A DNA stretch of 64,000 nucleotides from Deltaproteobacteria bacterium (GCA_037439645.1 JBBIVQ010000007.1:9029-73028); one strand, 5' to 3'. Counted from the first letter of the stretch, positions 26,111 through 63,491 are shown. Numbers and translations are program-made. Notes: a model not told the origin generated them from the sequence alone.

Positions 26111-26115
26111 GCGGG

Positions 26116-26766
26116 TTACCGGATCGTGATCTCGACCCGGCGGTTCCGGGGCTCCGGGACCTGGTCGCCGGTGGGGATGAGCGGGTTGTCCTTCCCGTGG
26201 GACGTGATGTCGAGAATCGAGCGATCGACGCCGCTCTTTTCGAGGATCGACGCCACCGCCTTTGCGCGCTTCAGGGAGAGGGCGTAGTTGTACTCCTTCT
26301 TCCCGACCGTGTCGGTGTGCCCCACCACGCTGATGTCCACCGGCGGGCGGTCCCGGATCGCCTGCACCACCTGTTTCAAGGATGCCTTCGACTCCCGCGT
26401 CAGGTCGGCCGAATCGTGCTCGAAATGGAGGATGTAGCGCAACGGGGGCTTCGGCAGAACCGCGAGGGCCGGGCCCGCCATCGCCTGCACCTCCGGCATG
26501 GGCATCAACGCGGGGGGCCCGGGAGCGGACCCCGCCTCCACCGTCACCGTTTCCCCGGGGCGATCCAGGCGGCGCTCCACCCCGCCGGCCGTCACTACGA
26601 TCGCGCCGGTCTTCCCCTGGTCGTCCGGAAGGAGGACGATGACGTCGCGTGCCGCCGGGGGCCCCGGCTTCAAGGGAGCGGCGCAGGAGGCGGCAAGGAA
26701 CAGGATCGGAATCGAAAGAGCGATCATCCGGCCGATCCCCGGGATCCGGTACGGAAACGCCCTCAT
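26116..26766 (-). CDS. OmpA-family peptidoglycan-associated (lipo)protein
   Basis: Signal/lipobox-like MIALSIPILFLAASC. C-terminal OmpA_C-like domain (ISVVGHTDTVGKKEYNYALSLKRAKAVASILEKSGVDRSILDITSHGKDNPL...RRVEI). The start ATGA-overlaps the upstream FecR-like gene. Confidence 0.75.
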   Translation of the reverse strand: MRAFPYRIPGIGRMIALSIPILFLAASCAAPLKPGPPAARDVIVLLPDDQGKTGAIVVTAGGVERRLDRPGETVTVEAGSAPGPPALMPMPEVQAMAGPALAVLPKPPLRYILHFEHDSADLTRESKASLKQVVQAIRDRPPVDISVVGHTDTVGKKEYNYALSLKRAKAVASILEKSGVDRSILDITSHGKDNPLIPTGDQVPEPRNRRVEITIR

Positions 26767-27227
26767 CGGGGAACCGCCTCCGCAACGGATACGGCGAAGC
26801 GGGTTCCCCGGATGCCGATCGTCGCGGTGGGGGTCTCGAAGCGCGCGTTTTCGGGTGCCAGTTTTCCGATCCATCCCGAGAGGTACGCCATCGTCCCCCG
26901 GGTGATGCGTGCCACCAGGGCGAATTTCCCCTCCGAGGGAGAAAACCGGAAGGTGCGGAGAAGCAGTCGGCTTTCCGGTCCGACGGAGAGGGAGGAGTCG
27001 TCGTGGAGGATGATGCCGATCGAACCGCCTCGGCCGGTGACGAGGGCATCGCCGGCCAGGAGCTTCAATCCGGGTTTGGCCGGGAGCGATTCCTTCCCGC
27101 GCGCCACGGCGGCGTCGCCGGACGCGGATCGCACAACGCCGACCGTTTCCCCGGCGCCCGCGGGACCGGGAACTGCAAGGAGGCAGAGTGCGTACACCAG
27201 AAGCGCGGCAGTCGGAACGTGCCCCAA
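26763..27227 (-). CDS. secreted FecR-domain-like protein (paralog of 16775..17236)
   Basis: TTG start at 27227 preceded by a GAGGGGGG RBS. Signal peptide ...TAALLVYALCLLAVPGPAGAG. Shares KGTMAYLSGWIGKLAPENARFETPTATIGIRGTRFAV with the paralog. Confidence 0.6.
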   Translation of the reverse strand: MGHVPTAALLVYALCLLAVPGPAGAGETVGVVRSASGDAAVARGKESLPAKPGLKLLAGDALVTGRGGSIGIILHDDSSLSVGPESRLLLRTFRFSPSEGKFALVARITRGTMAYLSGWIGKLAPENARFETPTATIGIRGTRFAVSVAEAVPR

Positions 27228-27358
27228 TTTCCACCCCCCTCGAAGGATTCCGTTCGATTTCTCCCCTTCAGTTATACCCTTCCCCACCCTGAACGTGTCA
27301 ATCATCCGGTATCGATCGCTGAGCCACGAGGTCGGGAAACTCCGGAAAACCCTTGAGG

Positions 27359-27373
27359 GCGAGCCCGGAGTCC
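27359..27373 (+). repeat. copy 3 (15-nt core) of the intergenic repeat
   Basis: GCGAGCCCGGAGTCC lies in the divergent FecR-like/GNAT intergenic region. It is preceded by the inverted ACTCCGG...CCGGAGT. Confidence 0.55.
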
Positions 27374-27387
27374 CATGGGCATCAATT

Positions 27388-27417
27388 GTTACCGTAATTA
27401 TGAAGGGGTGTACTAAG
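27388..27417 (+). promoter_or_regulatory. conserved 30-nt upstream element (copy upstream of GNAT gene)
   Basis: GTTACCGTAATTATGAAGGGGTGTACTAAG sits 46 nt upstream of the GNAT ATG. It contains a TAATTAT -10-like heptamer. Confidence 0.45.
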
Positions 27418-27462
27418 ATTGGAGAAAATGGAAGGCGATCGAAAAGGGAGGTTCCGGGAACG

Positions 27463-27924
27463 ATGGCCGATCATCTCGTGAAATTGTACGAATTGGAGAT
27501 TCTCCCCGCGGAATTGCCCGGAGTGACGATCCGCAGGCCGATGCCGCATGAAATGACGGCGGTTCGACGGTGGGTCGTCCGGACGTTCGGTGAAGGGTGG
27601 GGGGATGAATTCGAATGCAGTTTCAAGTCGTTTCCCGTAACTTCCTTCATCGCCGTCAGGGGCGACGCCGTCGTCGGTTTCGCGGTGTATGATGTGACAT
27701 CCCGGGGATACTTCGGACCGACCGGCGTCCTCGAGTCCGAACGGGGAAAGGGGATCGGGAAAGAACTTCTTTTCCGGTCGATGCTCGGGCTTCGGGAACT
27801 GGGGTACGCGTACGCGATCGTAGGGGGGGCGGGGCCCGTAGATTACTATCGGAAAATGCTGGGGGCCATCCCGATACCCGGTTCGGAACCGGGGGCGTAT
27901 CCGGTCCGGAGAATCAAGGAGTAA
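27463..27924 (+). CDS. GNAT family N-acetyltransferase
   Basis: 153 aa, ATG at 27463 (GGGAGG RBS). Acetyl-CoA binding region VLESERGKGIGKELL. Confidence 0.75.
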   Translation: MADHLVKLYELEILPAELPGVTIRRPMPHEMTAVRRWVVRTFGEGWGDEFECSFKSFPVTSFIAVRGDAVVGFAVYDVTSRGYFGPTGVLESERGKGIGKELLFRSMLGLRELGYAYAIVGGAGPVDYYRKMLGAIPIPGSEPGAYPVRRIKE

Positions 27925-27949
27925 CAACGTTTTATCCTTGCATCCGCCC

Positions 27950-27980
27950 TTGACAGCCTCTTCTCCATAAATGGTAGAGT
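27950..27980 (+). promoter_or_regulatory. candidate sigma70-type promoter upstream of the T6SS locus
   Basis: TTGACA (27950-27955) and TAGAGT (27975-27980) are separated by a slightly long 19-nt spacer, with a TG dinucleotide (27972-27973) giving an extended -10 form. Located in the gap between the GNAT stop and the first T6SS-associated ORF. Confidence 0.3.
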
Positions 27981-28015
27981 ATTCGAATGGATCGAGCCGG
28001 GCACGGGATCCGCCG

Positions 28016-30274
28016 ATGAGCGAAGGAGGCCACGGATTCTCCCTTCTTCCCCTCCTGGAGGGGGGCCGGGGATCGTTCCGTCTCCGGTTCATGCCCGCCT
28101 CGAAGGATATCGATTCCAACGAACCCACCTCCTTTCCGTTTCTCCTGATATCGGATTCCGATCCCGTCGCCCGTATCGTCGCCGCCCGGGTCGAATCCCC
28201 GTGCGGGGAGCGCATCGCGTCCCTGTTCCTCGTCGTCCAGAAAGACGACTACCGGGTCGACCCGGAGTCGTTCCACCCCGTGACGAACCCGGAGGTAGAG
28301 GGCGCATGGCAACGCGCAGAGGCGGCGTACCGCCGGTTCGACGATCCGTCCCGGCCGCGTTTTTTCCGGGAGTGGGCGGGCGCGGAAGGGGGATCTTCCA
28401 CCTTCGCGCCGCTTTTTCACTGCAGGGAAAAAGGCGGATATTTCCATCCGCCGTGTCCCCGGTGCGGCCGTTCCCTTGACCTTTGCGACGACGATGCGGT
28501 GCTCGCCGCCGCCGGCCTTCCGCTCTACTCGGGGTCGCTCCGGAGGCACCTGTACTGCCGCTCCTGTTCCGCGCATCACGGGGGGATCTTCTACGCGGCC
28601 GACGTCGGAAGCGGGGCTCCGGCCCTTCTTCGGGACCGGATCAGCCTCGTCCGCGATCTCGGAAACATGGGGGCCGCACCTTCCCCCGAAACGGGGTTTC
28701 CCTGTTCCGCGTGCGAGGATCGCGAGGAATGTTTCGGACCCTCCTTGAAGTCGTTGGGCCGGATCGTCCCCTTTTCCTTCTACCCGTTCCACGCGTTCGC
28801 CTTCGACGCCATGTCGTTGTGCGCTCCCGATTTTCTCGCACTCCTTTCCGGGGCCGGTGCGGACACGCTCGCGAAACGGCTGGATTCGGCCGGGGAGCGC
28901 GGAAGGGCGCGGCTGGTTCGAGCGGCGGGGGAGGCGTCTTCGCTCCTGTTCGATCGCGGGGAACGGAAGTTCCTCGAGATCCTCTACCTGAAACTCGCCT
29001 TTCTCGCGGATCTTGCCGGCGCCGTTCCGGCCGGGGAAAAGTTGACGGGGCCGCTGGGCGCTCATCCGTCGGTCGACCGTGCATGGGTGACCCTCGGCCC
29101 CGCACGGGGTCACCTTCCCCGGTACTGGAATTTCCGGACGGACGTCCTGGAGATCGGGCGATTCGCAGGGGCGGATGCGTCGGGCACGGTGTCCCACGCC
29201 TCCCCGGACCTTCTCTTTCTCGGGGTCGCATGGTTCGAAGCGTTGCTCGCCAATGCGAAACAGGACGGAAGAGTCTTGCGGAGCGCGCTGTCCGAGCGCC
29301 TCCGGAACCGTGCGCAGGCGAAAGATGCGACATCGTTCGGAGCGCGGGATCCGGGGTCCCCGTTCCATCCGGGGAACCTGTTCTTCGAACCCGAGGCCGA
29401 TCCTTTATCCGAAGGATCTGCGGATTTATGGGACGGTGTCCTTGCGGCGGGTTGGTCGATCCTTCGGGCCGGGGTGGGCGGGGAGAACGGATCCGGATGG
29501 GAATCGATCCGTGCGGAGATCCGGTCGTTGGCGAGGCGGGTGCGCGATCGCCTGTTCGGAGACGTGGCCCCGATTGCCCCGTCGCGTACCATGGTTCGGC
29601 CGGAGACCGCCGGGCCCCCGGCGGAAGCGTCGCCGGCCCCCCCCGCCACCGGTGCGGATGAAGCGGATGCGGCGGTCGCGGGAATCCTCGACGCGATTCT
29701 CCGGAAATGGACGACGGATGCGCCGGTGCCGGAAACCTTCCCCGCGGCACAGCCGAAACCGGAGCCGGCTCGGCCGCGTCCCGCCGCGCCGCCCAGCGAC
29801 GATTTCATGGTCAAGACCGTAGTGCTCGGTGATCCGCATGCCGCCGCGCGGCCGCCCGGAACCCCTTCGATCGCGGCGGATGCGTTGCCGACGTCCCGTG
29901 GGCCGGCGGAAATCCCTTCGCCGCGGTCCGAAGAGACGATCGAAAAAACGATGATCCTCCGCCCCTTGCGTTCGCCGGACGGGACCTCCGCCTCTCCCGA
30001 CGAATCGATCGAAAAAACCGTGATCCTCCGTGCAGGAACCACGGCGCCGCCGCCGATGAACGGGCCCGCTCCGCCCGTGGCGCCTCCGCCGGCGGACGAT
30101 TTCCTCGACCGGACCGTCATTCTCGGTCCGGGGAAATCGGGAATCGTCCCCCCTTCGCCTGCGAAGACGAACGCGCCGGTCCCCCCGGCGGCGGATGAGC
30201 CGGTCGACCTCGAAAAAACGGTGATCATCAAGGCGCCCAAAGACGCCGGAACCCTTCGGAGACACGGACGATGA
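28016..30274 (+). CDS. T6SS-associated hypothetical protein with Cys-cluster (zinc-ribbon-like) region and C-terminal proline-rich spaced repeats
   Basis: GC3-rich ORF continuous to 30274. Cys cluster CPRCGRSLDLCDD...CRSCSAHHGG...CSACEDREEC. Five repeats of a [DE]x[IL][ED][KR]T[VM]I[LI] unit (DFMVKTVVLG, ETIEKTMILR, ESIEKTVILR, DFLDRTVILG, DLEKTVIIKA) separated by Pro/Ala-rich linkers. Start uncertain: the 27971 ATG coincides with the putative -10, and the first downstream in-frame ATG is 28016. Confidence 0.5.
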   Translation: MSEGGHGFSLLPLLEGGRGSFRLRFMPASKDIDSNEPTSFPFLLISDSDPVARIVAARVESPCGERIASLFLVVQKDDYRVDPESFHPVTNPEVEGAWQRAEAAYRRFDDPSRPRFFREWAGAEGGSSTFAPLFHCREKGGYFHPPCPRCGRSLDLCDDDAVLAAAGLPLYSGSLRRHLYCRSCSAHHGGIFYAADVGSGAPALLRDRISLVRDLGNMGAAPSPETGFPCSACEDREECFGPSLKSLGRIVPFSFYPFHAFAFDAMSLCAPDFLALLSGAGADTLAKRLDSAGERGRARLVRAAGEASSLLFDRGERKFLEILYLKLAFLADLAGAVPAGEKLTGPLGAHPSVDRAWVTLGPARGHLPRYWNFRTDVLEIGRFAGADASGTVSHASPDLLFLGVAWFEALLANAKQDGRVLRSALSERLRNRAQAKDATSFGARDPGSPFHPGNLFFEPEADPLSEGSADLWDGVLAAGWSILRAGVGGENGSGWESIRAEIRSLARRVRDRLFGDVAPIAPSRTMVRPETAGPPAEASPAPPATGADEADAAVAGILDAILRKWTTDAPVPETFPAAQPKPEPARPRPAAPPSDDFMVKTVVLGDPHAAARPPGTPSIAADALPTSRGPAEIPSPRSEETIEKTMILRPLRSPDGTSASPDESIEKTVILRAGTTAPPPMNGPAPPVAPPPADDFLDRTVILGPGKSGIVPPSPAKTNAPVPPAADEPVDLEKTVIIKAPKDAGTLRRHGR

Positions 30275-31023
30275 ACTCCCCGGCGTCCATCTCCGGACTG
30301 GCGGAACTCGTCCGCGATGCGTACCGGTCCGACCCTGCCGGCGCACCCGCGCGGATCGAGAGGATCCTCTCCGCGAAGCTTGGGGGGATGACGGCGGAGG
30401 AAAAGATCGCGGCGGTGCGGGAGGTCCGCCGGCGTTGCGGGGCCTCCGCCGACGTGACCGGAGGGGATTCCGGGACGAACGGCGGGCGAGAGTGGGCCCG
30501 GCTGGCGGCGCTATTGCTCGGGGACCGCGTCGACGTCGCGAATCTTCCCCCGCGGGAACTGTCGGCAAAGCTGGCGGCCTCGCTCAACACCGTGTTCGAT
30601 TCACTGAACGCGACGGTCGGCGGGATCAACGCGACACTCCTCGGGAAGAAGGAAGAGCTCGAGACGATCCGCCTCATCATCGGATCGGACCTCGGAGGCA
30701 GAAAATCTTCCGGCACCTTGCAGGAGTACCTGGACCGGATCCGGGAGGCGTTCGGCATCGCCCACGGGGCGTTCCAGGAGGCGGCGGAGAGGAAGACCGG
30801 GGAACTCCTCGACGAGTTGTCCCCGGAAAACATCGCGTCCAAAGCCGAAGGGGGCCTCAAGTTCGGTCCCATGCGGAAAGCCGAGCTCTGGGACATCTAC
30901 GGGGAGCGGTTCCGGGCCGTACGGAAGGCGCTCGAATCGGGGAGGCTCCGCGAATCGATGTTGCGGGAATTCGAGAGGTGCTGCCAGAGAATGTACAAGA
31001 CGGGGGGAAAGGGGAAACCATGA
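30271..31023 (+). CDS. T6SS-associated hypothetical protein (250 aa)
   Basis: ATG at 30271 overlaps the previous stop (ATGA). The stop overlaps the tssJ start, indicating translational coupling into the T6SS operon. No recognised domain. Confidence 0.5.
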   Translation: MNSPASISGLAELVRDAYRSDPAGAPARIERILSAKLGGMTAEEKIAAVREVRRRCGASADVTGGDSGTNGGREWARLAALLLGDRVDVANLPPRELSAKLAASLNTVFDSLNATVGGINATLLGKKEELETIRLIIGSDLGGRKSSGTLQEYLDRIREAFGIAHGAFQEAAERKTGELLDELSPENIASKAEGGLKFGPMRKAELWDIYGERFRAVRKALESGRLRESMLREFERCCQRMYKTGGKGKP

Positions 31024-31565
31024 GACGCGCACTCCATCTGTTCGCCTGCGGCATCGTCGTTCCGCTCCTGCTCGCTTCCTGCGCCGGAGGTTCTTCCTCC
31101 GGGGGCGGTGCGGGGGGCGCCGCCGGTTCCGGGGTCTACGACTACGAAAAGGACGCGATCACCCTCAGCCTGAAGGGGGATGCGAAGCTCAACCTGTTCG
31201 AGAAAAGACCGCACACGCTGCTGGTATGCGTGTATCAGCTCCGGGATCCGAACGCGCTCAACCAGGTCCTTCAGGACGCGGAAGACGTGACGAAGCTGCT
31301 CGAGTGCGGGCGCTTCGACCCGAGCATCGTGAACACGAAGAAGTTCATCCTTCAGCCCGGCAAAGAGGTCACCGAGGCGCTCGACCGCGCGGAAGGCGCG
31401 CGCTACCTCGGGATCGTGGCGGGGTACTACAACCTCGACAAGCAGCGCGCATCGAGGATCCTTCCCGTCCCGGTCGCCGGCATGTTCGGAAAGAAGGCGG
31501 CCCGGATGAATATCGAAGTCATCCTCGGTCCGGACGAGATCCAGGCGGTAAAGGAGAGGAAATGA
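31020..31565 (+). CDS. tssJ: type VI secretion system lipoprotein TssJ
   Basis: Lipoprotein signal LLLASCAG. TssJ-type LLVCVYQLRDPNALNQV signature. Sized 181 aa and located immediately upstream of tssK-tssL-tssM. Confidence 0.75.
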   Translation: MRRALHLFACGIVVPLLLASCAGGSSSGGGAGGAAGSGVYDYEKDAITLSLKGDAKLNLFEKRPHTLLVCVYQLRDPNALNQVLQDAEDVTKLLECGRFDPSIVNTKKFILQPGKEVTEALDRAEGARYLGIVAGYYNLDKQRASRILPVPVAGMFGKKAARMNIEVILGPDEIQAVKERK

Positions 31566-32953
31566 CCGTCCACCGCCCTCTATTCTGGCACCAGGGGCTC
31601 TTTCTCCAGCCCCAGCATTTCCAGCTCCGCGATCTGTCGGATGAGGTGCCGCACGAACCGTATCGCCGGTATCTCGAACCGCATTTCTGGGGCGCCGGAA
31701 GCATCGAGATCCGGAAAGCGGCGCTCGGGACGCGATCGTTCGGGCTGGCGCAGGGGAGTTTCCTCTTCCCCGACGGCACCTGGGTCGAGTATCCGGGGAA
31801 CGCGCTGGTCGAGGCACGCCCATTCGAGGAAGCGTGGGTCGAGGGAGGGAAGAGTTTCCCGGTGTACGTCGGGATCCGGAAATGGAACGACGCCGGGGAG
31901 AACGTCACCGTGCTCAGCCGTCTCGCGGGCATGTCGGAGGTGACGACGCGTTTCGTCGCTTCCGCCGATCCCGAGGAGGCCAGGGACCTGCACGCGGGCG
32001 GTCCCGCGGGAAAGGTGAAGCGGCTGCACCATCTCCTCAAGATATTCTGGGAATCGGAACGGGAGCAACTCGGGGATTATCTGCTGATCCCGGTGGCGCA
32101 GCTCGACCGGATGGGCGAGGAGATCCTCGCGTCCGAGAAGTTCGCCCCGCCGGTCCTCGCGGTCGCCGCATCCGATCCCCTGTTCAAGCTGGTGCGGGAG
32201 GTCCGCGACCAGCTCGCCGCCCGAAGCCGGCAGCTCGAGGAGTACAAGCGGCAGAGGGGGATCCAGACGGCGGAATTCGGTTCGCGGGACATGGTGTACC
32301 TGCTGGCCCTGCGCTCCCTCAACCGGTACGTCCCCGCCCTCTACCACGTGACCGAGGCCGGGCAGGTCCACCCGTGGGCCGTCTACGGGGCGCTCCGGCA
32401 GTTGATCGGGGAGCTCTCCTCCTTCTCGGAAGGCGTGTCGGTCCTCGGCGAGGCGCCCGACGGCACGCGGCTGCTCCCCCCCTACGACCACCTGAACCTC
32501 TACCGCTGCTTCCTCGCCGCCCAGGCCCTCGTCTCGCAGCTGCTCGACGAGATCACGGCCGGCCCGGAGCACGTGATGCGCCTCCTGTACGACGGCACCT
32601 ACTATGCGGCGGAACTTGCCCCCGCGGTATTCGAGGGGAGGAACCGGTTCTACCTCGTCCTACGGACGCAGGAGGACCCGAAGGCGGTACTCGAGACGAT
32701 CGAGACGGCGGCGAAGCTCGGATCGAGGGAGAGCCTTCCCCTTCTCATCGCCCGGGCCCTGCCGGGAGTCGCGCTCGAGCACCTGCCCGTTCCGCCGCAG
32801 GAGCTTCCCCGGCGGGCGAACTCCCTCTACTTCGCCGTGGACCATCACGGGGAACAGTGGGCGGGAGTGGAGAAGGGACGCAACCTCGCTTTCTACTGGG
32901 ACGACGCGCCGGAAGACCTCGAGGCCGAACTCATGGTCGTAGGGAGATCGTGA
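31562..32953 (+). CDS. tssK: type VI secretion system baseplate protein TssK
   Basis: N-terminus MTVHRPLFWHQGLFLQPQHFQ is the hallmark TssK/ImpJ start. AAGGAGAGG RBS. Confidence 0.9.
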   Translation: MTVHRPLFWHQGLFLQPQHFQLRDLSDEVPHEPYRRYLEPHFWGAGSIEIRKAALGTRSFGLAQGSFLFPDGTWVEYPGNALVEARPFEEAWVEGGKSFPVYVGIRKWNDAGENVTVLSRLAGMSEVTTRFVASADPEEARDLHAGGPAGKVKRLHHLLKIFWESEREQLGDYLLIPVAQLDRMGEEILASEKFAPPVLAVAASDPLFKLVREVRDQLAARSRQLEEYKRQRGIQTAEFGSRDMVYLLALRSLNRYVPALYHVTEAGQVHPWAVYGALRQLIGELSSFSEGVSVLGEAPDGTRLLPPYDHLNLYRCFLAAQALVSQLLDEITAGPEHVMRLLYDGTYYAAELAPAVFEGRNRFYLVLRTQEDPKAVLETIETAAKLGSRESLPLLIARALPGVALEHLPVPPQELPRRANSLYFAVDHHGEQWAGVEKGRNLAFYWDDAPEDLEAELMVVGRS

Positions 32954-32955
32954 CG

Positions 32956-33636
32956 ATGCATCTGACCGATTGCTTCATGGAGCTCATGGCGTACGTGGTC
33001 TACTTCCAGCGGACGTCGCAGAAGCGGCAGCCGCCCTTCGAGCAGGTGAAGGCCGACGTGACCCGCCTTCTCTCGCAGAGCGAGGCGCTCTCCCGGAAGG
33101 GGGAGGTTTCCCGCGAGGAGTTCGACACGGCGCGGTTCGCCGTGTGCGCCTGGGTCGACGAGGCGATCCTCAGCTCGCCGTGGACCCACCGGACCCTCTG
33201 GCAGCGGGAGCAGCTCCAGCGGATCCTGTACAACACGACGGAGGCGGGGGAGGAGTTCTTCGACCGGATGAACGCCCTCGGCTTCCACCAGAGGGAGGCC
33301 CGCGAGGTCTACTACCTCTGCCTCACCCTCGGGTTCATGGGCCGTCACTGCCACGCGGGGGACGACTTCCTGCTCGCACAGCTGAAATCGTCCAACCTCC
33401 AGGTGCTGCTCGGGAGCTCCGCCGGGATCCCTTCCCTCGAACGCGCGGAGCTCTTTCCGGAAGGGTATCCGGCCGAGGCGCCCGTGGCGGCCAAGGCGCA
33501 GCCGAAGTCGGGTTTCTCCCTGTTCACGGCCCTCTGCATCGCCGCGCCGATCGTCCTGTTCGGCGTCCTGTTCCTGATCTACCGTTTTTCCCTGAGCGGG
33601 CTCGGGGATAATCTCTTGAGGACGGTGCCGTACTAA
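32956..33636 (+). CDS. tssL: type VI secretion system membrane protein TssL (DotU family), without peptidoglycan-binding extension
   Basis: 226 aa. DotU-like cytoplasmic domain (FAVCAWVDEAILSSPW...YYLCLTLGFMG) plus a single C-terminal TM (FTALCIAAPIVLFGVLFLIY). No OmpA/PG-binding domain follows the TM. Confidence 0.85.
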   Translation: MHLTDCFMELMAYVVYFQRTSQKRQPPFEQVKADVTRLLSQSEALSRKGEVSREEFDTARFAVCAWVDEAILSSPWTHRTLWQREQLQRILYNTTEAGEEFFDRMNALGFHQREAREVYYLCLTLGFMGRHCHAGDDFLLAQLKSSNLQVLLGSSAGIPSLERAELFPEGYPAEAPVAAKAQPKSGFSLFTALCIAAPIVLFGVLFLIYRFSLSGLGDNLLRTVPY

Positions 33637-36600
33637 ATGGGCGATACGATGATCAAGACGTTGAAGATCGTTCTCCTGGTGGCCGCCGCGATCCTGCTCG
33701 TCCTGCTCCTGTTCGGGATCGCCCTGGCCGTGAACCTTCCGTGGTGGATGGGGTTCGTCTTCGCGGGCCTGTGCGCGGCGCTGGCGACGGGGGCGGTGCT
33801 CCTCCGGAAAATCCAGGCGCGGCGGAAGGAGCAGACGTTCGTCCAGCAGGTCATCGCGCAGGACGAGGCCCGGATCCAGACGATGTCCGCCAGGGAGCAG
33901 ACGCAGGAGAAGGAGCTCCAGGAACGGTGGAAGGAGGCGATCGCCTCCTTGCAGGGATCCCACCTGCGCAAGCAGGGGAACCCGCTCTATGTCCTTCCCT
34001 GGTACATGGTGATCGGGGAGAGCGGCTCCGGGAAAACGACCTCGATCGGCAGCGCGAAGCTCTCCACCTTCTCGGACGTCAACCGCGTGTCCGGCATCTC
34101 CGGGACACGGAACTGCGACTGGTGGTTCTTCGAGCAGGCGATCCTTCTCGACACGGCGGGGCGCTACGCGATGCCGGTCGACCAGGGAAAGGACAAGGAA
34201 GAGTGGCAGCAGTTCCTGAACCTGCTGGTCAAGTACCGGAAGAAGGAGCCGATCCACGGCCTGATCGTGACGGTCGCGGCCGACAAGATGATCGAGTCGA
34301 CGCCCGAGGCGATGGCGGAGGACGGCAAGGCCATCCGCTCCCGGATCGACGAGCTGATGCGGGTCCTCGGTGCGAAGTTCCCCGTCTACGTCCTCGTCAC
34401 CAAGTGCGACCTGGTCCAGGGGATGACGCAGTTCTGCGAGCGGCTCCCCGAGACCGGCCTCGACCAGTCGATGGGATACGTGGACCAGGGTCTCTCGCTC
34501 GACGTGACGACCTTCCTCGACCGGGCGATGAACACCCTCTCCGAGCGGCTGCGGAACCTTCGCCTGATCCTGCTCCACTCGGGCGGTTCGGGCGGGACGG
34601 AGCCCGGGCTTCTCCTCTTCCCCGAGGAGTTCGGCAACCTGCGGCGCGGCCTCGAACCGTTCATGAAGGCCGCGTTCCTCGCGAACCCGTACCAGGAGAC
34701 GCCGATCCTTCGAGGCATCTTCTTCAGCAGCGGCCGGCAGGAGGGGAGCCCCTACTCCCACTTCCTCAATTCCCTCGGGCTGGTCGGGGAGAGGGACATC
34801 CTCCCCGGCACGAACCGCGGCCTCTTCCTGCACGACTTCTATTCGAAAGTCCTGCCGCGGGACAAGGGTCTCTTCGCCCCGACGAAGCGCGCGCTCGAAT
34901 GGCAGAGCCTCACGCGGAATCTCGGGTTGACCACCTGGGTGCTCGTCGGGATCGTCGTCTGCGGGCTGATGAGCTTCTCCTTCGTGAAGAACCTCCGGAC
35001 GGTCCGCGAGGCCTCCCACGAATTCGCCAAGTCCCCGCCGCTCCAGAGGGACCTGCTGGCGGACATGATCGTGATGGACCGGTTCGGGCAGTCGATCCTG
35101 AAGGTCGAGAAGAGCAACCAGGGGTGGTGGACTCCGCGGTTCGGACTCACCGAGAGCATCCGTGTCGAAGAAGCGCTGAAAGCGAAATATTGCAAACAGT
35201 TCCGCGAAGGGTTCCTCACGGACTTCGACCGGAAACTGGCGGCGGAGATGTCCTCCGTCTCCGCATCCACGCCGGACGGGACGGCGGCGCAATACATCGA
35301 CCATCTCGTTCGGAGGATCAACCTCCTGAAGGCGCGACTCGGGGGCCAGGGGCTCGAGACGATCACGAAGTTGCCGCAGCCGGCGTACCTCGCCTTCCTC
35401 TCTTCCGGAGGACAGGACGTCGCGCCGGACATCCGGAAGAAGTTCGGCTCCCTCTACTTCTACTACCTGTCATGGCGGACGGACACCTCCGACATCAACC
35501 AGGAGGTGGGGATCCTCCAGGGGTGGCTCCGGCACGTCCTCGCGACCCGGGGGTCGAATTTCCAGTGGATCGTCGTCTGGGCCGAGAAGCAGAGCGGTTC
35601 CCCTCCCGTGTCGCTCAAGGAGTTCTGGGGCGGTTCGCAGGCGATCCAGGGGGAACGGACGATCTCCCCCGCCTTCACCAGGAAGGGGAAGGAGCAGGTC
35701 GATTCCTTCGTCGGAGAGATCGAGACGGCGGTCGCGGATCCCGTCGCCATGGCCGGCCAGAAGGCGGCCCTCGGGAGGTGGTACCCGCAGGCGTGCCTGT
35801 CGGCGTGGGGGCAGTTCGCGGCCGGATTCCAACGTGGAGCGGATACCCTGAAGGGGCAAAAGGAGTGGCAGGCGGCCGCGGCGCGGGCGGCGACCGACCA
35901 GGGGCCGCACCTGGCGTTCGTGGCGAGGATCGCGTCGGAGCTGGAGTTCCTCGGCGAGGAGGAGAATCTTCCCGCCTGGTTTCAGCAGGCGTACCAGTAC
36001 CAGTCGATCCGGACGCAGGCGCAGGCGGCGGGGATGGCTGCGAAGGCGACCGAGAGCGGAAAGAAGCTGTTGGCGAGGATCGAGCGGACGTTCGGCAAGG
36101 GGACGGAAGGGTCCTCGGCGGCCCTGGCCGCGCAGAAAACCTGGCAGGAGTACCTCGCTTCCCTGACCGCCGTCGTCCAGGCATCCGCTTCCCGGGCGGC
36201 GGCGTTCCAGCTCGCTTCGCAGACGTTCGGCGAAGACCCCGCCGGCGGGAAGTCCCCCTTCTACGCCGGCCTGGGAGCGGCGGCCCGGCTCAAGGCCGCC
36301 GTCGGCGGGAATCGTCCCGTGGACGAGGTCGTGTCGAAGTTGATCACGGGGCCGTTCGATTTCCTCTGGACGTATGTCCGCAATGAGACCGGCTGCCAGA
36401 TGCAGGCGACGTGGGAGCAGACCGTCCTGGCGGAATCCCAGGGTGCGACCGGGTTCCAGGCTTCGCAACTCCTGCTCGGTCCGGAAGGGCTGGTCTGGAA
36501 ATTCGTGAAGGGACCCGCCGCGCCGTTCCTGACGCGCACGTTGAAGGGGTACGGAGGGAAGGACGCCCTCGGGGCGAAGATCCCGTTCGTCCCGGAATTC

Positions 36601-37110
36601 TACGGGTTCCTCTCGAAAGGCGCGTCGGTGGCCGTCGCCTCCGCGGCGGCGGGCGGCGGGAAGTCCGGGCCGTCCGGTGTCTCCGTCAAGGGGCTTCCGA
36701 CGGACGCGAATCCCGAGGCGCGCGTCAAGCCGCATGGAACGCGCCTCGAGCTGCAGTGCGCGTCCGGTCCCCAGGCGCTGGTCAACCTGAACTACCCGGT
36801 GACCAAGGTGTTCAACTGGTCCCCCGAGACGTGCACCGACGTCGTGTTGCAGATCAGCGTGGGGAACCTGGTGCTGAAAAAGGCGTACCCGGGAGACCAC
36901 GGATTTCCGGCGTTCCTCCAGGATTTCCCCGGCGGGCAGCACACCTTCCAGGCGGCGCAATTTCCTGCGGAGAGGGCCGCGCTGGAGCAGATGGGGATCA
37001 AATATATCCGGGTGAGTTTCCGGTTCAGCGGAGAGAAAGGGGTGGTCGGAGCCGCGAAAGCCGCCCCGGGAACCGCGCCGCGAACCGTCGCCGCATGCTG
37101 GTCCCCGTAG
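33637..37110 (+). CDS. tssM: type VI secretion system membrane protein TssM (IcmF family)
   Basis: 1157 aa. N-terminal TMs and a Walker A motif (WYMVIGESGSGKTT). Large periplasmic C-terminal region. Confidence 0.9.
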   Translation: MGDTMIKTLKIVLLVAAAILLVLLLFGIALAVNLPWWMGFVFAGLCAALATGAVLLRKIQARRKEQTFVQQVIAQDEARIQTMSAREQTQEKELQERWKEAIASLQGSHLRKQGNPLYVLPWYMVIGESGSGKTTSIGSAKLSTFSDVNRVSGISGTRNCDWWFFEQAILLDTAGRYAMPVDQGKDKEEWQQFLNLLVKYRKKEPIHGLIVTVAADKMIESTPEAMAEDGKAIRSRIDELMRVLGAKFPVYVLVTKCDLVQGMTQFCERLPETGLDQSMGYVDQGLSLDVTTFLDRAMNTLSERLRNLRLILLHSGGSGGTEPGLLLFPEEFGNLRRGLEPFMKAAFLANPYQETPILRGIFFSSGRQEGSPYSHFLNSLGLVGERDILPGTNRGLFLHDFYSKVLPRDKGLFAPTKRALEWQSLTRNLGLTTWVLVGIVVCGLMSFSFVKNLRTVREASHEFAKSPPLQRDLLADMIVMDRFGQSILKVEKSNQGWWTPRFGLTESIRVEEALKAKYCKQFREGFLTDFDRKLAAEMSSVSASTPDGTAAQYIDHLVRRINLLKARLGGQGLETITKLPQPAYLAFLSSGGQDVAPDIRKKFGSLYFYYLSWRTDTSDINQEVGILQGWLRHVLATRGSNFQWIVVWAEKQSGSPPVSLKEFWGGSQAIQGERTISPAFTRKGKEQVDSFVGEIETAVADPVAMAGQKAALGRWYPQACLSAWGQFAAGFQRGADTLKGQKEWQAAAARAATDQGPHLAFVARIASELEFLGEEENLPAWFQQAYQYQSIRTQAQAAGMAAKATESGKKLLARIERTFGKGTEGSSAALAAQKTWQEYLASLTAVVQASASRAAAFQLASQTFGEDPAGGKSPFYAGLGAAARLKAAVGGNRPVDEVVSKLITGPFDFLWTYVRNETGCQMQATWEQTVLAESQGATGFQASQLLLGPEGLVWKFVKGPAAPFLTRTLKGYGGKDALGAKIPFVPEFYGFLSKGASVAVASAAAGGGKSGPSGVSVKGLPTDANPEARVKPHGTRLELQCASGPQALVNLNYPVTKVFNWSPETCTDVVLQISVGNLVLKKAYPGDHGFPAFLQDFPGGQHTFQAAQFPAERAALEQMGIKYIRVSFRFSGEKGVVGAAKAAPGTAPRTVAACWSP

Positions 37111-37895
37111 ACGCGGAAGGCGGCTGGAAGTTCGCCGCGTTCGGGAAACACCCCGGGGAGAAGGATTACATCCGCCTGGGGAGCGCGACGCCGTTGCTGG
37201 AAGGGATCGCGGAGTGGGTCGAAAAGGGATACGCGGGGATCGATGGGAAGAGGAGGGGGATGGCGGAAGCGGTGTCGTGGCGGTTCTGGACGAAGGGGAT
37301 CGGCCCCGAGGGACTTGTCTGCGGGGTCGTGCGGGATAGCGGCGACCGTCTCGGGAGGCCGTACCCGCTTCTCGTCCTCGGGACCGGGGCCTTGGCGGAC
37401 TGGGAAGGGAACTGGGATCTGCTACCGTACGCCTGCCTGACGGTATGGCAGAGGATGGAATACGCGGGAGCCCAGCGGTACGAGGAGATCGGACGATTCG
37501 AATCGGCGATCCGCGGACTGCACCCCCCAACCGCGACGTGGTCGGATTTTTCCGCCCGCAGGGAACGCGAAGCGGGTGCGATGGGAGCCCGTTCCGGAAC
37601 GGGCTCGACCGGGAAAGCGGTGCGTCGGGAGGGGGAAGAACCGGCCCCGGAAGAGACGTTCCGGTTCATCCGTATCGACGGGGGGGACGGGCACGACCCT
37701 TTCCCGGCGGCGGTCGATCGGCAGTACCGCCTTCGGCGCGATTGCGCCGATGTCCCGAACGCCGTCTTTTTCGGCGGGACGATGTCGCGGACGTACCTCG
37801 GCGTTTTCCGTAGACCCGTCGCGGCGGCCGATTTCGCACGGATCTGGAACGTGACGGAGGCGGAGGAAGGATCGTTGGAGCGGGGGGCGAACTGA
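37095..37895 (+). CDS. tagF: type VI secretion-associated protein TagF (ImpM/DUF2094 family)
   Basis: MLVPVDAEGGWKFAAFGKHPGEKDYIRLG...GRPYPLLVLG fits the TagF N-terminal pattern. Overlaps the tssM 3' end by 16 nt. The stop overlaps the tssA start. Confidence 0.7.
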   Translation: MLVPVDAEGGWKFAAFGKHPGEKDYIRLGSATPLLEGIAEWVEKGYAGIDGKRRGMAEAVSWRFWTKGIGPEGLVCGVVRDSGDRLGRPYPLLVLGTGALADWEGNWDLLPYACLTVWQRMEYAGAQRYEEIGRFESAIRGLHPPTATWSDFSARREREAGAMGARSGTGSTGKAVRREGEEPAPEETFRFIRIDGGDGHDPFPAAVDRQYRLRRDCADVPNAVFFGGTMSRTYLGVFRRPVAAADFARIWNVTEAEEGSLERGAN

Positions 37896-39454: not shown

Positions 39455-39539
39455 GGCGTTGAAATGCACCTCGATGAAAGGAGGCGGCGCAGGTTCGGGA
39501 ACCGCGTATCACGGATAAATCCTGATGAAGGAGGTTCGT

Positions 39540-40025
39540 ATGGCGAAGGAAGGAACGGTTGCTCCGCGGGAACGGGTCAACATCACGTACCGCCCGGCGA
39601 CGGGCGACGCGAAGGAGGACGTCGAGCTTCCGCTCAAACTCCTGGTGATGGGAGATTTCACGGGAGCCCCCGACGACCGGCCGCTGGAGAAACGGGAGCC
39701 GGTGAACATCGACAAGGACAACTTCGACGACGTCCTGAAGGCCCAGAAGCTCGGTCTCAACATCAACGTGCCCAACCGGTTGTCCGGGAAGGAAGGCGAC
39801 GAGATGAGCGTCAAGCTCAACATCGCGTCGATGAAGGATTTCGGCCCGGAGTCGGTGGCCGAACAGGTCCCCGAGCTCAAGAAGCTCCTCGAGCTGCGCG
39901 AGGCCGTAAAGTCCTTGAAGAGCCCGTTGTCGAACGTCCCCGAGTTCCGGAAGAAGATCCAGGAACTCGTGAAGGACGAATCCGCCCGGAAGCAGTTGCT
40001 CAAAGAAGTCGGGATCGAGGAATAG
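39540..40025 (+). CDS. tssB: type VI secretion system contractile sheath small subunit TssB
   Basis: AAGGAGG RBS, ATG at 39540. MAKEGTVAPRERVNITYRPATGDAKEDVELPLKLLVMGDFTG is canonical TssB/VipA. Confidence 0.9.
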   Translation: MAKEGTVAPRERVNITYRPATGDAKEDVELPLKLLVMGDFTGAPDDRPLEKREPVNIDKDNFDDVLKAQKLGLNINVPNRLSGKEGDEMSVKLNIASMKDFGPESVAEQVPELKKLLELREAVKSLKSPLSNVPEFRKKIQELVKDESARKQLLKEVGIEE

Positions 40026-42080: not shown

Positions 42081-42497
42081 ATGAAGGAAGAACGGCTTCT
42101 GGAACGGGTGAGAAACTGCGAGAGGGACTCCGCGCGGCGCGGCGTTGAGGATCCGCAGAGGATCAGCGATTCGGTCCTCGAGCATCTAAGGCGGATCCTC
42201 AACACGCGCCAGGGGTGCGTCCCGATCGCCGACGACTACGGCGTCCCGGAGTTCACGGAGTACCTCCACCTCGGCGCGGAGGTGTACCGGGAACTCGAGA
42301 AGGTTCTCCGGACCACCATCCAGAAGTACGAGCCCCGCCTCAAGGGGGTGCGGGTCACCTTCATCCCGGAGGAGGAGGATCGCCTCGCCCTCCAGCTGCA
42401 GTTCCACGTCGTCGCGAAGCTGGCGAGCGATCCCCGGCTCCAGGTCCAGTTCCAGACGTCGATCGACGGCAACGGCCAGATCCGCATGAAGGATTGA
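42081..42497 (+). CDS. tssE: type VI secretion system baseplate protein TssE (gp25-like)
   Basis: 138 aa. SVLEHLRRILNTRQGCVPIADDYGVPEF is a gp25/GPW lysozyme-like motif. Confidence 0.85.
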   Translation: MKEERLLERVRNCERDSARRGVEDPQRISDSVLEHLRRILNTRQGCVPIADDYGVPEFTEYLHLGAEVYRELEKVLRTTIQKYEPRLKGVRVTFIPEEEDRLALQLQFHVVAKLASDPRLQVQFQTSIDGNGQIRMKD

Positions 42498-61691: not shown

Positions 61692-63491
61692 ATGCCCAAT
61701 TTCCAGCCGACCCGATTCGGGAAATATCTCCTCCTCGAAAAACTCGCGACGGGCGGGATGGCCCAGTTGTACCGGGCGAAGATCATCGGCGTCGAGGGGT
61801 TCGAGAAGTTCATCGCCATCAAGCAGATCCTTCCCCATCTCGCCCACGAGGAGGAGCTGATCACCTCCTTCATCGACGAGGCGAAGCTGGCCGCCCTCCT
61901 GAACCACCAGAACATCGTGCAGATCTACGATTTCGGCTCCATGGAAAATTCGTACTTCATCACGATGGAGTTTCTTCACGGGAAGGACCTTCGCGGAGTC
62001 AATGCGAAGGCGAAAGAGAAGGGGATCCCGATCAGCCTCGAAAATTCGCTGTTCCTGATCTCCAAGGTGTGCGCCGGGCTCGATTACGCCCACAAGCTGA
62101 AGGATTTCCAGGGGAAATCCCTGAACATCATCCACCGGGACATCTCCCCCCAGAACGTCTTCCTCACCTACCAGGGGGACGTCAAGATCGTGGACTTCGG
62201 GATCGCCAAGGCGGCGAGTCAGAGCACGATCACCCAGGTCGGGATGATCAAGGGGAAGGTCGCGTACATGTCGCCGGAGCAGGCGGCGGGGAAAGTGATC
62301 GACCACCGGTCCGACATCTTCGCCACGGGGATCCTCCTCTATGAACTGGTCGCGGGCGGCCGCATGTTCAAGGGGGACGACACCCTCCAGATCCTGTCGA
62401 AGGTCCGGGATGCCGATTTCACTCCGCTCGGGACGTTGAAGGGCGGGCTTCCCGAAAAATTGTACGACATCGTCGAGAAGGCGCTCGCCAAGGAGCCGGA
62501 AAACCGGTACCAGTCGTGCGGCGACATGCAGGCCGATATCGAAGAGTGCATCTTCCGGCTCAACTTGAGGCCTTCCGGTCGCACCCTGGCCGACTACCTC
62601 GGGTTGCTGTTTGCCGAAGAGATCGAGGCGGAAGGGAAACGGATGGCCGACACCGCGGAGGCGGGGGCGGTGAGCGACCGGGCCCGCGACGCGGAAGCGG
62701 AGCGACGGGCGGCAGCCGTCCCTTCGGCGCCGCCTCCTCCCGCCGACAGGTCGGAGACGCCACCCCCGTCTCCGCCGAAGCCCGCGCGAAATACCGCGAC
62801 TGCGTCGAGCGAACCTGCCAAGGGCGGGAAAAAAGGAATTTTCGCCGCCGTCGCGGGGGTGGCCGTAGCCGCTCTTCTCGCCGGCGGATACCTGCTGACG
62901 GGGAAGGGAAAGGAGACGGCCGGCACGGCCGCGACGGCAACGGCAACGGCGACGAGCCCTTCGGCTGCGGTCCCGGCGGTCCCCTCGTCTCCCCCTCCCG
63001 CCGCGGCGAAGGCGGCACCCGCGCCGTCACCGTCCGCGGAAGCGTCGGAACTTGTGCGGAAAGGCACGGGACTCGTCGAGTCGAACCCGGCGGAGGCGAA
63101 GTCCATCCTCCTGCAGGCGATCGCGAAGGATCCGCGGAGCGTCCAGGGACATTTCCAGCTCGGACACGCCTACGTGAAGATGAAAGAGTACCCGGAAGCG
63201 CTCGCCGCTTACGCGAAGGCGGGCGAGGTCGACCCGAAGTTCGCGGACGCCTTCTTCAATATGGGCTACGTTCACGCCGTCCGGAAGGAGTACGCCAAGG
63301 CGGAGGGGATGTACGAGAAGGTGGTCGCGCTCTCCCCCATGTACCTTGACGAAGCGTTGTACAACCTCGGGATGATCCAGGAAAAGATCGGAAAGCGGAA
63401 GGAGAGTCTCCGGAACATCGAGAAGGCTCTGTCGATCAATCCCGGAAACGAACCGGCGAGGAAAGCCCTCGCCAGGTTGAAGGGGAAATAG
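61692..63491 (+). CDS. Ser/Thr protein kinase with C-terminal TPR repeats
   Basis: Hanks-type kinase: GKYLLLEKLATGGMAQLYRA, AIKQI, HRDISPQNVFL, DFGIAKA, SPEQ. Then a Pro/Ala-rich linker, a TM segment and TPR repeats (AYAKAGEVDPKFADAFFNMGYVH...). Confidence 0.85.
   Translation: MPNFQPTRFGKYLLLEKLATGGMAQLYRAKIIGVEGFEKFIAIKQILPHLAHEEELITSFIDEAKLAALLNHQNIVQIYDFGSMENSYFITMEFLHGKDLRGVNAKAKEKGIPISLENSLFLISKVCAGLDYAHKLKDFQGKSLNIIHRDISPQNVFLTYQGDVKIVDFGIAKAASQSTITQVGMIKGKVAYMSPEQAAGKVIDHRSDIFATGILLYELVAGGRMFKGDDTLQILSKVRDADFTPLGTLKGGLPEKLYDIVEKALAKEPENRYQSCGDMQADIEECIFRLNLRPSGRTLADYLGLLFAEEIEAEGKRMADTAEAGAVSDRARDAEAERRAAAVPSAPPPPADRSETPPPSPPKPARNTATASSEPAKGGKKGIFAAVAGVAVAALLAGGYLLTGKGKETAGTAATATATATSPSAAVPAVPSSPPPAAAKAAPAPSPSAEASELVRKGTGLVESNPAEAKSILLQAIAKDPRSVQGHFQLGHAYVKMKEYPEALAAYAKAGEVDPKFADAFFNMGYVHAVRKEYAKAEGMYEKVVALSPMYLDEALYNLGMIQEKIGKRKESLRNIEKALSINPGNEPARKALARLKGK

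Follow-up and report, generated by a model that had tools for sequence, protein, structure and literature searches.

The 64,000-nucleotide stretch of DNA analysed here (Deltaproteobacteria bacterium, GCA_037439645.1, JBBIVQ010000007.1:9029-73028; in the following called the window) contains a complete type VI secretion system (T6SS) gene cluster of the T6SS(i) type. Two open reading frames (ORFs) on the plus strand, designated ORF1 and ORF2, are located immediately upstream of this cluster. ORF1 codes for a protein in which a globular region with a Cys-rich insert is followed by a Pro/Ala-rich tail with repeated threonine (Thr) motifs, and ORF2 codes for a smaller protein with a remote likeness to the C-terminal domain of the T6SS protein TagH, also called Fha. 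The two proteins very probably constitute a dedicated T6SS accessory module with this anatomy, and we consider it fairly probable that the pair is the functional equivalent of Fha. The coordinates of all features are given in Table 1.

Both reading frames have a GC content at third codon positions (0.76 for ORF1, 0.84 for ORF2) that is typical for the genes of the window, the overall GC content of which is about 66%. In a first-pass annotation of the sequence, the two genes had been described as uncharacterised and as translationally coupled to tssJ. The coupling is directly visible, since the stop codon of ORF1 and the start codon of ORF2 share the tetranucleotide ATGA at 30271-30274, and the stop codon of ORF2 overlaps the start codon of tssJ in the same manner at 31020-31023. 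The longest form of ORF1 extends from 27971 to 30274, with a first Met at 27971. The start at Met16, position 28016, agrees with the N-termini of all homologues, among them a protein of 752 amino acids with 97% identity (P0001) which has the same start. A promoter-like sequence on the plus strand, consisting of TTGACA, a spacer of 19 nucleotides and TAGAGT (27953-27990), overlaps the in-frame ATG at 27971 and would thereby favour the Met at 28016 as the true start. A strict scan of 27300-28200 for sigma-70 promoters and terminators, in which the spacer was limited to 16-18 nucleotides, called none. Using Pfam together with transmembrane and signal prediction, neither a toxin domain nor a signal peptide nor a transmembrane segment was identified in ORF1 or ORF2. 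Because of the absence of a signal peptide and a transmembrane segment and the presence of Cys motifs of the zinc-ribbon type, ORF1 is most likely a soluble, cytoplasmic protein.

Homologues of ORF1 were identified by a word-indexed search and by a separate pattern scan of one genome per species. The former yielded 78 proteins, all of them annotated as 'hypothetical', which agrees with the initial description of the genes as uncharacterised; the latter revealed relatives in 221 species-level genomes. Within the Desulfobacterota, these belong to the Desulfobacterales, the Syntrophobacteraceae, Smithella, Geobacter, the Syntrophorhabdales and a Deferrimicrobium-like group. Further relatives are present in the Nitrospirota, in Thermodesulfovibrio, in Candidatus Brocadia and other anammox Planctomycetia, in Candidatus Methylomirabilis, in the Deferribacteres and in the Bacteriovoracaceae. 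A pair of genes similar to ORF1 and ORF2 was also found on a 2.7-kb contig (DATEUW010000003.1, locus L089) binned as 'Candidatus Nanoarchaeia archaeon', an assignment which almost certainly results from wrong binning and does not indicate an archaeal T6SS. In open-access papers and bioRxiv (full text), no description of an ORF1/ORF2 family was found. Judged by sequence, ORF1 is the founding member of an undescribed T6SS-linked family for which no Pfam model exists.

In the best 80 species-level loci, the gene order ORF1-ORF2-tssJ-tssK-tssL-tssM-tagF is constant as far as the sequence continues. ORF2 follows ORF1 in 79 of the 80, the exception being cut by a contig end, and the ORF2 match usually begins at -10 to +60 nucleotides relative to the ORF1 stop. 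The genes tssJ (75/80) and tssK (76/80) are present wherever the sequence continues. For tssM (56/80) and tagF (51/80) the shortfall, where checked, coincided with contig ends or with the limit of the flank, and tagF follows tssM in all loci which extend far enough. Nine more loci annotated with Pfam (L001-L008 and L095) have the same order. The linkage to tssJKLM is thus kept across the 80 loci, where homologues spread widely outside T6SS loci would have spoken against a T6SS role; clearly, they are not. A regulatory or membrane-complex accessory role, as first suggested from the position at the head of the operon, is also the reading reached here.

The same synteny bears on the view that ORF1 or ORF2 might be a secreted effector, an immunity protein or a cargo adaptor. 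T6SS clusters often hold lineage-specific proteins, and ORF1 belongs to no described family. Effector and immunity genes are variable and located near vgrG or PAAR genes, whereas keeping one place at the head of the tssJKLM-tagF operon, as seen in 79 of 80 species from several phyla, is how a machine component behaves. Since ORF2 is in addition homologous to the C-terminal domain of TagH, and neither protein has a toxin domain, a signal peptide or a transmembrane segment, this view is very improbable, and an effector or immunity role was rejected on the invariant operon position.

For ORF2, a match to the TagH/Fha C-terminal domain family T6SS_FHA_C (PF20232) was obtained above the gathering threshold, which takes in model positions 103-174 of 180, thus only the C-terminal half of the model. 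The family is matched by 36 of 38 ORF2 relatives at E<=0.01 (best value 1.1e-7), and no other family recurs. The TagH model TIGR03354 gives a weak match to the same stretch (E 0.009, model positions 341-413 of 420). The N-terminal part of ORF2, of about 160 amino acids, is helical and lies outside the PF20232 match. An AlphaFold2 model of ORF2 is all-alpha with a mean predicted local distance difference test score (pLDDT) of 72, and Foldseek returned no informative PDB neighbour for it. An FHA domain was not matched in ORF1 or ORF2 at E<=1 with Pfam and NCBIfam, nor was one present in 38 ORF2 relatives or 30 ORF1 relatives. In a hidden Markov model (HMM) search of 1.84 billion representatives, the ORF2 family comprised 272 clusters at 50% identity, nearly all of about 250 amino acids. 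In annotated plasmid regions of Burkholderia, Pantoea and Thioclava with tblastn matches to TssK and TagF, no TagH gene is listed. By its C-terminal domain and its gene position, ORF2 is a TagH/Fha-like protein, one which lacks the FHA domain. The earlier statement that neither protein matches a standard T6SS accessory protein therefore holds for ORF1, which has no family, and has to be withdrawn for ORF2, which matches PF20232.

The relation between the two genes is illustrated by three metagenomic proteins from the HMM search (P0228, P0208 and P0256), in which a tail of the ORF1 type and an ORF2 domain are joined in one reading frame. The fused tail consists of an 'ILxxIxxKW' helix, the counterpart of the amphipathic helix in the ORF1 tail, which stands at the N-terminus of the fusion proteins, and of three to nine Thr motifs. 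P0228, with 546 amino acids and the same length in two assemblies, unites the helix with nine Thr motifs and the ORF2 domain; it is encoded on a 69.9-kb contig directly before tssJ-K-L-M-tagF-impE-tssA, and within 6 kb upstream no gene for a kinase-like domain is present. Fusions of the P0228 type imply that the core unit is a disordered region with Thr motifs plus a TagH-C-like domain, corresponding to TagH minus FHA. The predicted kinase-fold, putatively zinc-binding domain of ORF1 described below is, by this comparison of sequences, an added and dispensable module, and in the window the boundary between the two polypeptides lies behind the tail, not ahead of it.

Two kinds of length variation were noticed among these proteins. 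P0256 contains six perfect tandem repeats of 35 amino acids, each with the motif LSKTVVLS, ahead of its ORF2-like part; this indicates that the motif copy number expands by recent tandem duplication. Three ORF2-like proteins of about 367-370 amino acids (P0223, P0293 and P0302) are matched by the ORF2 profile in three stretches, and P0223 is longer because an N-terminal helical module of about 60 amino acids, single in ORF2, is present three times.

The tail of ORF1 carries five copies of the motif [DE][DE]x[LI]x[KR]T[VM][IV][LI], as had been noticed at first. A regular spacing, which had also been claimed, was not confirmed: the distances are 44, 23, 32 and 35 residues, and in the family the median is 34 with a range of 11-137. 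The family logo reads [DE][DE]x[LI]x[KE]-T-[VM]-[IV]-[LI]-[GRSK]-[PA]. When the 185-amino-acid tail was shuffled with its composition kept, a mean of 0.08 motifs of Thr plus three aliphatic residues was obtained, and none of 100,000 shuffles reached five. Between one and eight tail motifs are present in 78 of 79 complete homologues, while the globular part (about 550 amino acids) of 72 relatives contains none or one. In the tails of these 72 relatives, Thr precedes 317 of 328 aliphatic triplets (97%) and Ser only two; the residue at +3 from Thr is Leu in 254 and Ile in 40 of 313 motifs (294/313 for both). The first-pass annotation had regarded disorder without conserved periodicity as an argument against significance of the repeats. 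The tail is indeed predicted to be disordered (pLDDT <50) and has a family-wide composition of 17.5% Pro and 13.5% Ala; yet the motif is kept across phyla while the linkers vary, which is the signature of short linear motifs and not of low-complexity noise.

The Thr motifs probably serve as sites of phosphorylation or as ligands of FHA domains. The 'pT+3 rule' for the recognition of phosphothreonine (pT) by FHA domains includes a class pTxxI/V (PMC6468809). With its obligatory Thr, its upstream acidic residues and Leu or Ile at +3, the ORF1 motif fits this class. Thr is preferred over Ser and Ile or Leu stands at +3, as expected for an FHA ligand under this rule, which asks for Ile, Leu or Val (or Asp) at +3, the phosphorylation of the Thr being putative.

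A candidate kinase for the tail is encoded by the last gene of the window, at the distal end of the T6SS cluster. It is a canonical Hanks-type Ser/Thr kinase with intact VAIK, HRD and DFG motifs, followed by a Pro-rich linker, one transmembrane segment and TPR repeats, an architecture that makes it an analogue of PpkA. Over the full length it is 52% identical to a kinase beside an ORF1-like gene (locus L005), where the kinase and a PP2C phosphatase are encoded directly upstream. In relatives, the kinase stands at the head of a conserved module. Thus in L011, a close relative on the same contig as the ORF1 homologue P0026, an orthologous kinase of 81% identity has behind it a short ORF and then, in this order, the genes for a nucleotide cyclase, a polysaccharide deacetylase, and TPR, double-FHA and PP2C proteins. 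The 64-kb window has neither an FHA nor a PP2C gene, and from the module in L011 both would be expected just past its 3' end. In a Syntrophorhabdales contig (L010), the T6SS cluster is closed by the same kinase/double-FHA/PP2C module.

For the wider family, the upstream flanks were inspected in those 57 loci with at least 3 kb of sequence upstream of ORF1, with Pfam confirmation of the matches for a sample; few distal ends of clusters are included in this count. A Pkinase or double-FHA gene lies less than 1.5 kb upstream of ORF1 in 10 of the 57, three of which also have a PP2C. Three loci from Desulfuromonadales and Geobacter (L031, L071 and L086) contain a double-FHA gene directly upstream of the ORF1-like gene in the same orientation, with a gap of 82-203 nucleotides as measured in L031 and L086. 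In five loci of the Eth-SRB1 type (L018, L023, L025, L028 and L032), a protein of about 300 amino acids, consisting of a kinase domain only, is encoded at this position directly upstream of the ORF1-like gene. The association with kinase, FHA and PP2C genes is thus recurrent and varied in arrangement, and not universal in the visible flanks.

The main rival to a phospho-switch is that the Thr motifs are constitutive, unphosphorylated beta-strand docking motifs similar to TonB boxes, so that the tail would act as a multivalent tether which brings several copies of a T6SS component together and so nucleates either the membrane complex or the baseplate. TssK, the cytoplasmic domain of TssM or TssL, TagF and ORF2 would be candidate partners. 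The three aliphatic residues after the Thr favour a strand, and TonB boxes have a consensus of the ETVIV or DTIVVTA type, which the tail motif resembles. Moreover, the motif is found in 78 of 79 homologues as compared to kinase, FHA or PP2C genes near only 11 of 57 loci, and a copy number of one to eight with tandem duplication, as in the six perfect repeats of P0256, fits an avidity device. If strand formation were the function, however, Val or Ile should often replace the Thr, and they rarely do (317 of 328 triplets follow a Thr), although this is a mild argument. Acidic positions from -6 to -4, together with a hydrophobic +3 position, follow the logic of kinase substrates and FHA ligands, and AlphaFold2 docked none of the motifs on the globular domain of ORF1 itself. 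Strand docking is therefore regarded as rather unlikely. A TonB-box array was rejected for the ORF1 tail, since the protein is probably cytoplasmic.

For the globular region of ORF1, an AlphaFold2 model was built on an alignment of 72 sequences and is confident for residues 1-517. The Foldseek search proposed with the first-pass annotation gave kinases for nearly all top matches, with weak E-values (best 0.02), and the region probably adopts a bilobal protein-kinase fold. With Pfam and NCBIfam, no family was found for ORF1 and 30 relatives, apart from weak zinc-ribbon matches at most, and no Pkinase or other kinase-family HMM matched these proteins even at E<=1. Searches of PDB chains with the family profiles of ORF1 and ORF2 gave nothing meaningful. 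The comparison by hhalign pairs residues 397-413 (PDLLFLGVAWFEALLAN) with the alphaF helix of kinases, which is suggestive in a comparison that is not significant overall. In the columns of the 72 sequences, neither a conserved Gly-rich loop nor an HRD motif is present. Position K76 is Lys or Arg in 65 of 72, the positions of E95 and D354 are acidic in 65 and 69, and N372 is Asn in 65. Conserved stretches are S-x-D354-R-x-W357-V and L-P-x-[YF]-W371-N372-F373-[RK], and D379-I-G is partly conserved. Either DIG or WNF could be the equivalent of DFG, and with the latter the putative DFG Asp would be Asn (N372); the mapping of catalytic positions is approximate because the fold is taken from a predicted structure without a significant profile match. 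As modelled, the domain is probably a pseudokinase.

Alternatively, ORF1 could be an active, atypical kinase-fold enzyme which phosphorylates, AMPylates or similarly modifies, in cis, either ORF2 or the tail of ORF1 itself, and would then combine PpkA and its substrate in a self-sufficient protein. Its predicted fold, the polar residues kept at the expected catalytic sites (D354 in 69, and N372, K76 and E95 each in 65 of 72) and a Thr-rich tail on the same polypeptide would suit such an enzyme. Against this stand the missing match to any kinase-family HMM in 30 members at E<=1, the lack of a conserved Gly-rich loop and of HRD, and the Asn at the putative DFG Asp. A canonical kinase gene, which often adjoins ORF1, would be redundant if ORF1 were active, and the P0228 lineage does without the kinase-like domain. 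An active ORF1 is thus considered improbable.

The Cys-rich segment CPRCG...CRSC...CSACEDREEC was correctly pointed out in the first reading of the sequence. Nine Cys residues (C136, C147, C150, C157, C181, C184, C230, C233 and C239) are invariant in an alignment of 30 sequences down to 27% identity; in the 72-sequence alignment, C184 and C233 are conserved to at least 90% and the other seven are invariant. At least nine Cys are found in the insert in 77 of 79 complete species-level homologues, and its length in the family is about 110-140 amino acids. From the order of the predicted secondary-structure elements, the insert appears to be placed between the putative alphaC helix and beta4. The knuckles C147-P-R-C150-G and C181-R-S-C184 are conserved about 30 residues apart and would form a zinc ribbon with putative zinc binding; the Lar_restr_allev HMM matches eight of 30 members weakly (best E 0.0084). 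Nine Cys exceed the need of one zinc ribbon, and five of them, including a CxxCx5C group, lie beyond the CPxCG/CxxC pair. A redox or metal sensor, either an Fe-S centre or a redox-sensitive zinc, which gates T6SS assembly with the tail and ORF2 as output, has therefore been considered. The hosts belong to anaerobic or microaerophilic lineages (sulfate reducers, syntrophs, anammox bacteria, Methylomirabilis and Thermodesulfovibrio), which would be in line with this function. No Fe-S family HMM matched, though, two structural zinc sites explain the number of Cys residues equally well, and the taxonomic restriction may reflect phylogeny, so that a sensor of this kind appears highly improbable.

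The fit of the motif to the pT+3 rule and its likeness to the phosphorylated site of Agrobacterium tumefaciens TssL described below led to the proposal of a bipartite Fha-equivalent, made up of ORF1 and ORF2, at the cytoplasmic face of TssJLM. Here, ORF2 would represent the C-terminal domain of TagH, at the fha position before tssJ-tssK-tssL-tssM-tagF, and the ORF1 tail its disordered linker, while the FHA domain of TagH would be replaced by the predicted kinase-fold, zinc-binding pseudokinase domain of ORF1. In a first step, ORF1 and ORF2 would assemble with each other in the cytoplasm, at the TssJLM membrane complex. The invariant Thr residues of the tail motifs would then be phosphorylated by a cluster-linked Hanks kinase, in the window by the one encoded in its last gene, and the resulting pT-x-x-[L/I] would be read by a separate tandem-FHA protein, a bivalent reader of a multivalent ligand, which would give a switch-like trigger for assembly. 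The switch would be reset by a PP2C phosphatase and opposed by TagF, whose known partner is Fha (PMC5995506), and the pseudokinase domain would either dock the kinase or the membrane complex or act on one of them allosterically. Reading of a phosphorylated tail by an FHA protein, the most specific part of this model, is put forward tentatively, while for the combined statement, that ORF1 and ORF2 are a split and rewired Fha-type post-translational assembly switch, the chances are about even.

Several points weigh against this proposal. The analysis shows the gene pair and its coupling, the predicted fold, the conserved motif, the synteny, the fusion and the recurring kinase/FHA/PP2C neighbourhood, whereas complex formation, phosphorylation, FHA reading, control by TagF and the role of the pseudokinase are steps that we infer. 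In 46 of the 57 loci, as opposed to 11, the visible upstream flank contains no kinase, FHA or PP2C gene. The kinase family is very large, with 5079 hits at E<=1e-60, and the kinase module also occurs away from a T6SS (L009); adjacency to ORF1 could therefore be partly incidental, and the kinase of the window could be a coincidental neighbour. The kinship of ORF2 to TagH is remote, and canonical FHA-bearing TagH was absent among the 272 hits of the ORF2 profile. Thr followed by aliphatic residues is also the pattern of an unphosphorylated docking motif such as the TonB box. The kinase fold depends on a predicted structure, and hhalign comparisons of the ORF1 family to PknB and to an alignment of 50 kinase sequences were not significant (probability <1%), while the conserved acidic D354 and N372 may leave room for atypical catalysis.

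A more far-reaching version would make ORF1 a new class of T6SS organiser, in which a kinase-fold domain that is atypically catalytic or gated by redox- or metal-sensitive Cys controls its own tail, and the modified tail together with ORF2 nucleates the membrane complex via avidity or condensate-like interactions. This is judged to be a long shot; if true, it would be an Fha-type switch without FHA on the scaffold, specific to T6SSs from anaerobic phyla, among them the anammox bacteria and Methylomirabilis.

Apart from the pair and its T6SS cluster, some other genes of the window were noted. 3' of vgrG on the plus strand (50199-54452), a PG_binding_1 protein and a protein of 1166 amino acids without Pfam match (50952-54452) are encoded, and after the PAAR gene two more small PG_binding_1 proteins follow (54820-55980, plus strand); together with PAAR these genes are probably a peptidoglycan-targeting effector and immunity set. 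Divergent from the head of the T6SS cluster, genes for a FecR-domain protein, an OmpA-family protein and a CHASE2 plus HD-GYP protein of the cyclic di-GMP phosphodiesterase type are located on the minus strand (24107-27305). They may represent a second regulatory input, and this neighbourhood is not kept beside ORF1 in the other loci examined. At 13846-15237 (plus strand), the UDP-3-O-acyl-GlcNAc deacetylase LpxC carries a response-regulator receiver domain as an N-terminal fusion, which is unusual for the enzyme at the committed step of lipid A synthesis. At 6237-9527 (minus strand), an ORF of 1096 amino acids has a gene-like codon bias and no Pfam match.

Table 1. Coordinates of ORF1, ORF2, their parts and the T6SS genes of the window
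Feature	Position	Strand	Remarks
ORF1	28016..30274	+	752 aa (amino acids) from Met16; no transmembrane segment; no Pfam domain in 78 homologues
ORF1 globular region, residues 1-517	28016..29566	+	predicted kinase-like fold, probably pseudokinase
Cys-rich insert, C136 to C239	28421..28732	+	CPRCG and CRSC knuckles, plus CxxCx5C group
Disordered Pro/Ala-rich tail of ORF1, residues 518-752	29567..30271	+	pLDDT <50 outside helix 546-567
Amphipathic helix, residues 546-567, DAAVAGILDAILRKW	29651..29716	+	conserved; start of tail
Thr motif 1, SDDFMVKTVVL, Thr601	29798..29827	+	
Thr motif 2, EETIEKTMIL, Thr645	29930..29959	+	
Thr motif 3, DESIEKTVIL, Thr668	29999..30028	+	
Thr motif 4, DDFLDRTVIL, Thr700	30095..30124	+	
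Thr motif 5, PVDLEKTVII, Thr735	30200..30229	+	
ORF2	30271..31023	+	250 aa, predicted all-helical, FHA-less TagH/Fha-like
ORF2 residues 167-235, T6SS_FHA_C match	30769..30975	+	PF20232, E 8.9e-6, 26.1 bits (gathering threshold 23.7)
tssJ-tssK-tssL-tssM-tagF block	31020..37895	+	membrane-complex and baseplate-link genes directly 3' of the pair
tssJ	31020-31565	+	Pfam match, start codon checked
tssK	31562-32953	+	Pfam match, start codon checked
tssL	32956-33636	+	Pfam match, start codon checked
tssM	33637-37110	+	Pfam match, start codon checked
tagF	37095-37895	+	Pfam match, start codon checked
tssA	37895-39454		
tssB	39525-40025		
tssC	40036-41520		
hcp	41553-42056		
tssE	42081-42497		
tssF	42526-44259		
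tssG	end at 45251		
clpV	45252-47897		
vgrG	47932-50202		
PAAR	54468-54788		
DUF2169	58964-59995		
Hanks-type Ser/Thr kinase	61692..63491	+	Pfam Pkinase E 1.3e-37, plus TPR; last gene of the window

Among the known systems, TagH/Fha is the closest to the ORF1/ORF2 pair. Canonical TagH consists of an FHA domain, a disordered linker, which contains a regulatory phospho-Thr in Pseudomonas aeruginosa, and a C-terminal domain. With TagH/Fha (Fha1 PA0081, ImpI, VCA0112; TIGR03354; PF00498 and PF20232) the pair shares the PF20232-type domain of ORF2, the gene position upstream of tssJ/tssK-tssL-tssM-tagF, the co-conserved tagF gene and, in the ORF1 tail plus ORF2, the succession of a disordered Thr-bearing linker and a C-terminal domain, which is a single protein in some relatives. 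In contrast to TagH/Fha, ORF1 and ORF2 have no FHA domain and the unit is distributed over two coupled genes; the N-terminal module of ORF1 is predicted to be of kinase fold and zinc-binding; the tail has one to eight copies of a defined motif as compared to one mapped phospho-site in the TagH linker; and ORF2, with its remote sequence kinship, has its own helical N-terminal part of about 160 amino acids. For the P. aeruginosa locus, we take the genes between fha1 and tagF to be PA0077-PA0080. In classical clusters of the threonine phosphorylation pathway (TPP), fha comes before tssJ/K-L-M, after which tagF, pppA and ppkA are located, and ORF2 occupies the place of fha. This arrangement is represented by PA0081 fha1 ... 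PA0076 tagF, PA0075 pppA and PA0074 ppkA in P. aeruginosa and by Atu4335 fha ... Atu4331 tagF-pppA and Atu4330 ppkA in A. tumefaciens. The protein family described here is so far undescribed, while the post-translational Fha/TPP switch which it would vary is known.

The only mapped FHA ligand of a T6SS is the site DLPpTVVEI of A. tumefaciens TssL, which is phosphorylated by PpkA and bound by Fha (PMC3953482). This acidic-L-x-T-V-V peptide in a cytoplasmic tail resembles the D-x-L-x-[KE]-T-V-[IV]-L of the ORF1 motif. It is a single site with Glu at +3, whereas ORF1 has several putative sites on an accessory protein with Leu or Ile at +3. The TonB box is likewise a short [DE]-T-three-aliphatic strand motif in a disordered segment; it is periplasmic and acts on the TonB C-terminal domain, whereas ORF1 is probably cytoplasmic, and no TonB-like gene was found in the cluster.

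As to the kinases, the predicted fold of ORF1 resembles the catalytic domain of PpkA/TagE and PknB-like kinases. ORF1 differs from them by the lack of a Pkinase HMM match, of a conserved Gly-rich loop and of HRD, by the Asn at the probable DFG Asp, by the Cys insert of about 110-140 amino acids and by the absence of a transmembrane segment or periplasmic sensor, and a real PpkA analogue, with its Pkinase-transmembrane-TPR architecture, is encoded separately. The closest precedent, by analogy only, for a pseudokinase in a secretion machine is EssB/YukC, the catalytically dead kinase-fold hub of the secretion system of type VIIb (T7SSb), a system which also uses FHA domains (bioRxiv 10.1101/2020.05.09.085852). 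Unlike ORF1, EssB/YukC belongs to a T7SSb, is anchored in the membrane and has neither a zinc ribbon nor a tail with Thr motifs. If the predicted fold is correct, ORF1 would be the second case, after EssB/YukC, in which a secretion machine incorporates a protein of kinase fold.

For the question of how Fha/TagH promotes T6SS assembly and which role its C-terminal domain has, this lineage offers a natural separation of the parts: ORF2 is the C-terminal domain on its own, the linker repeats one motif a number of times that can be counted, the FHA reader, where present, would be a different protein, and the N-terminal module is either swapped for a putative pseudokinase or absent. The task of each part can thereby be addressed directly. 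In a 2025 preprint, 22% of the tagF clusters were scored as 'lacking Fha', and the ORF1/ORF2 pair may help to explain how TagF acts in such clusters. The family is a marker for a T6SS subtype that belongs to anaerobes of environmental importance.

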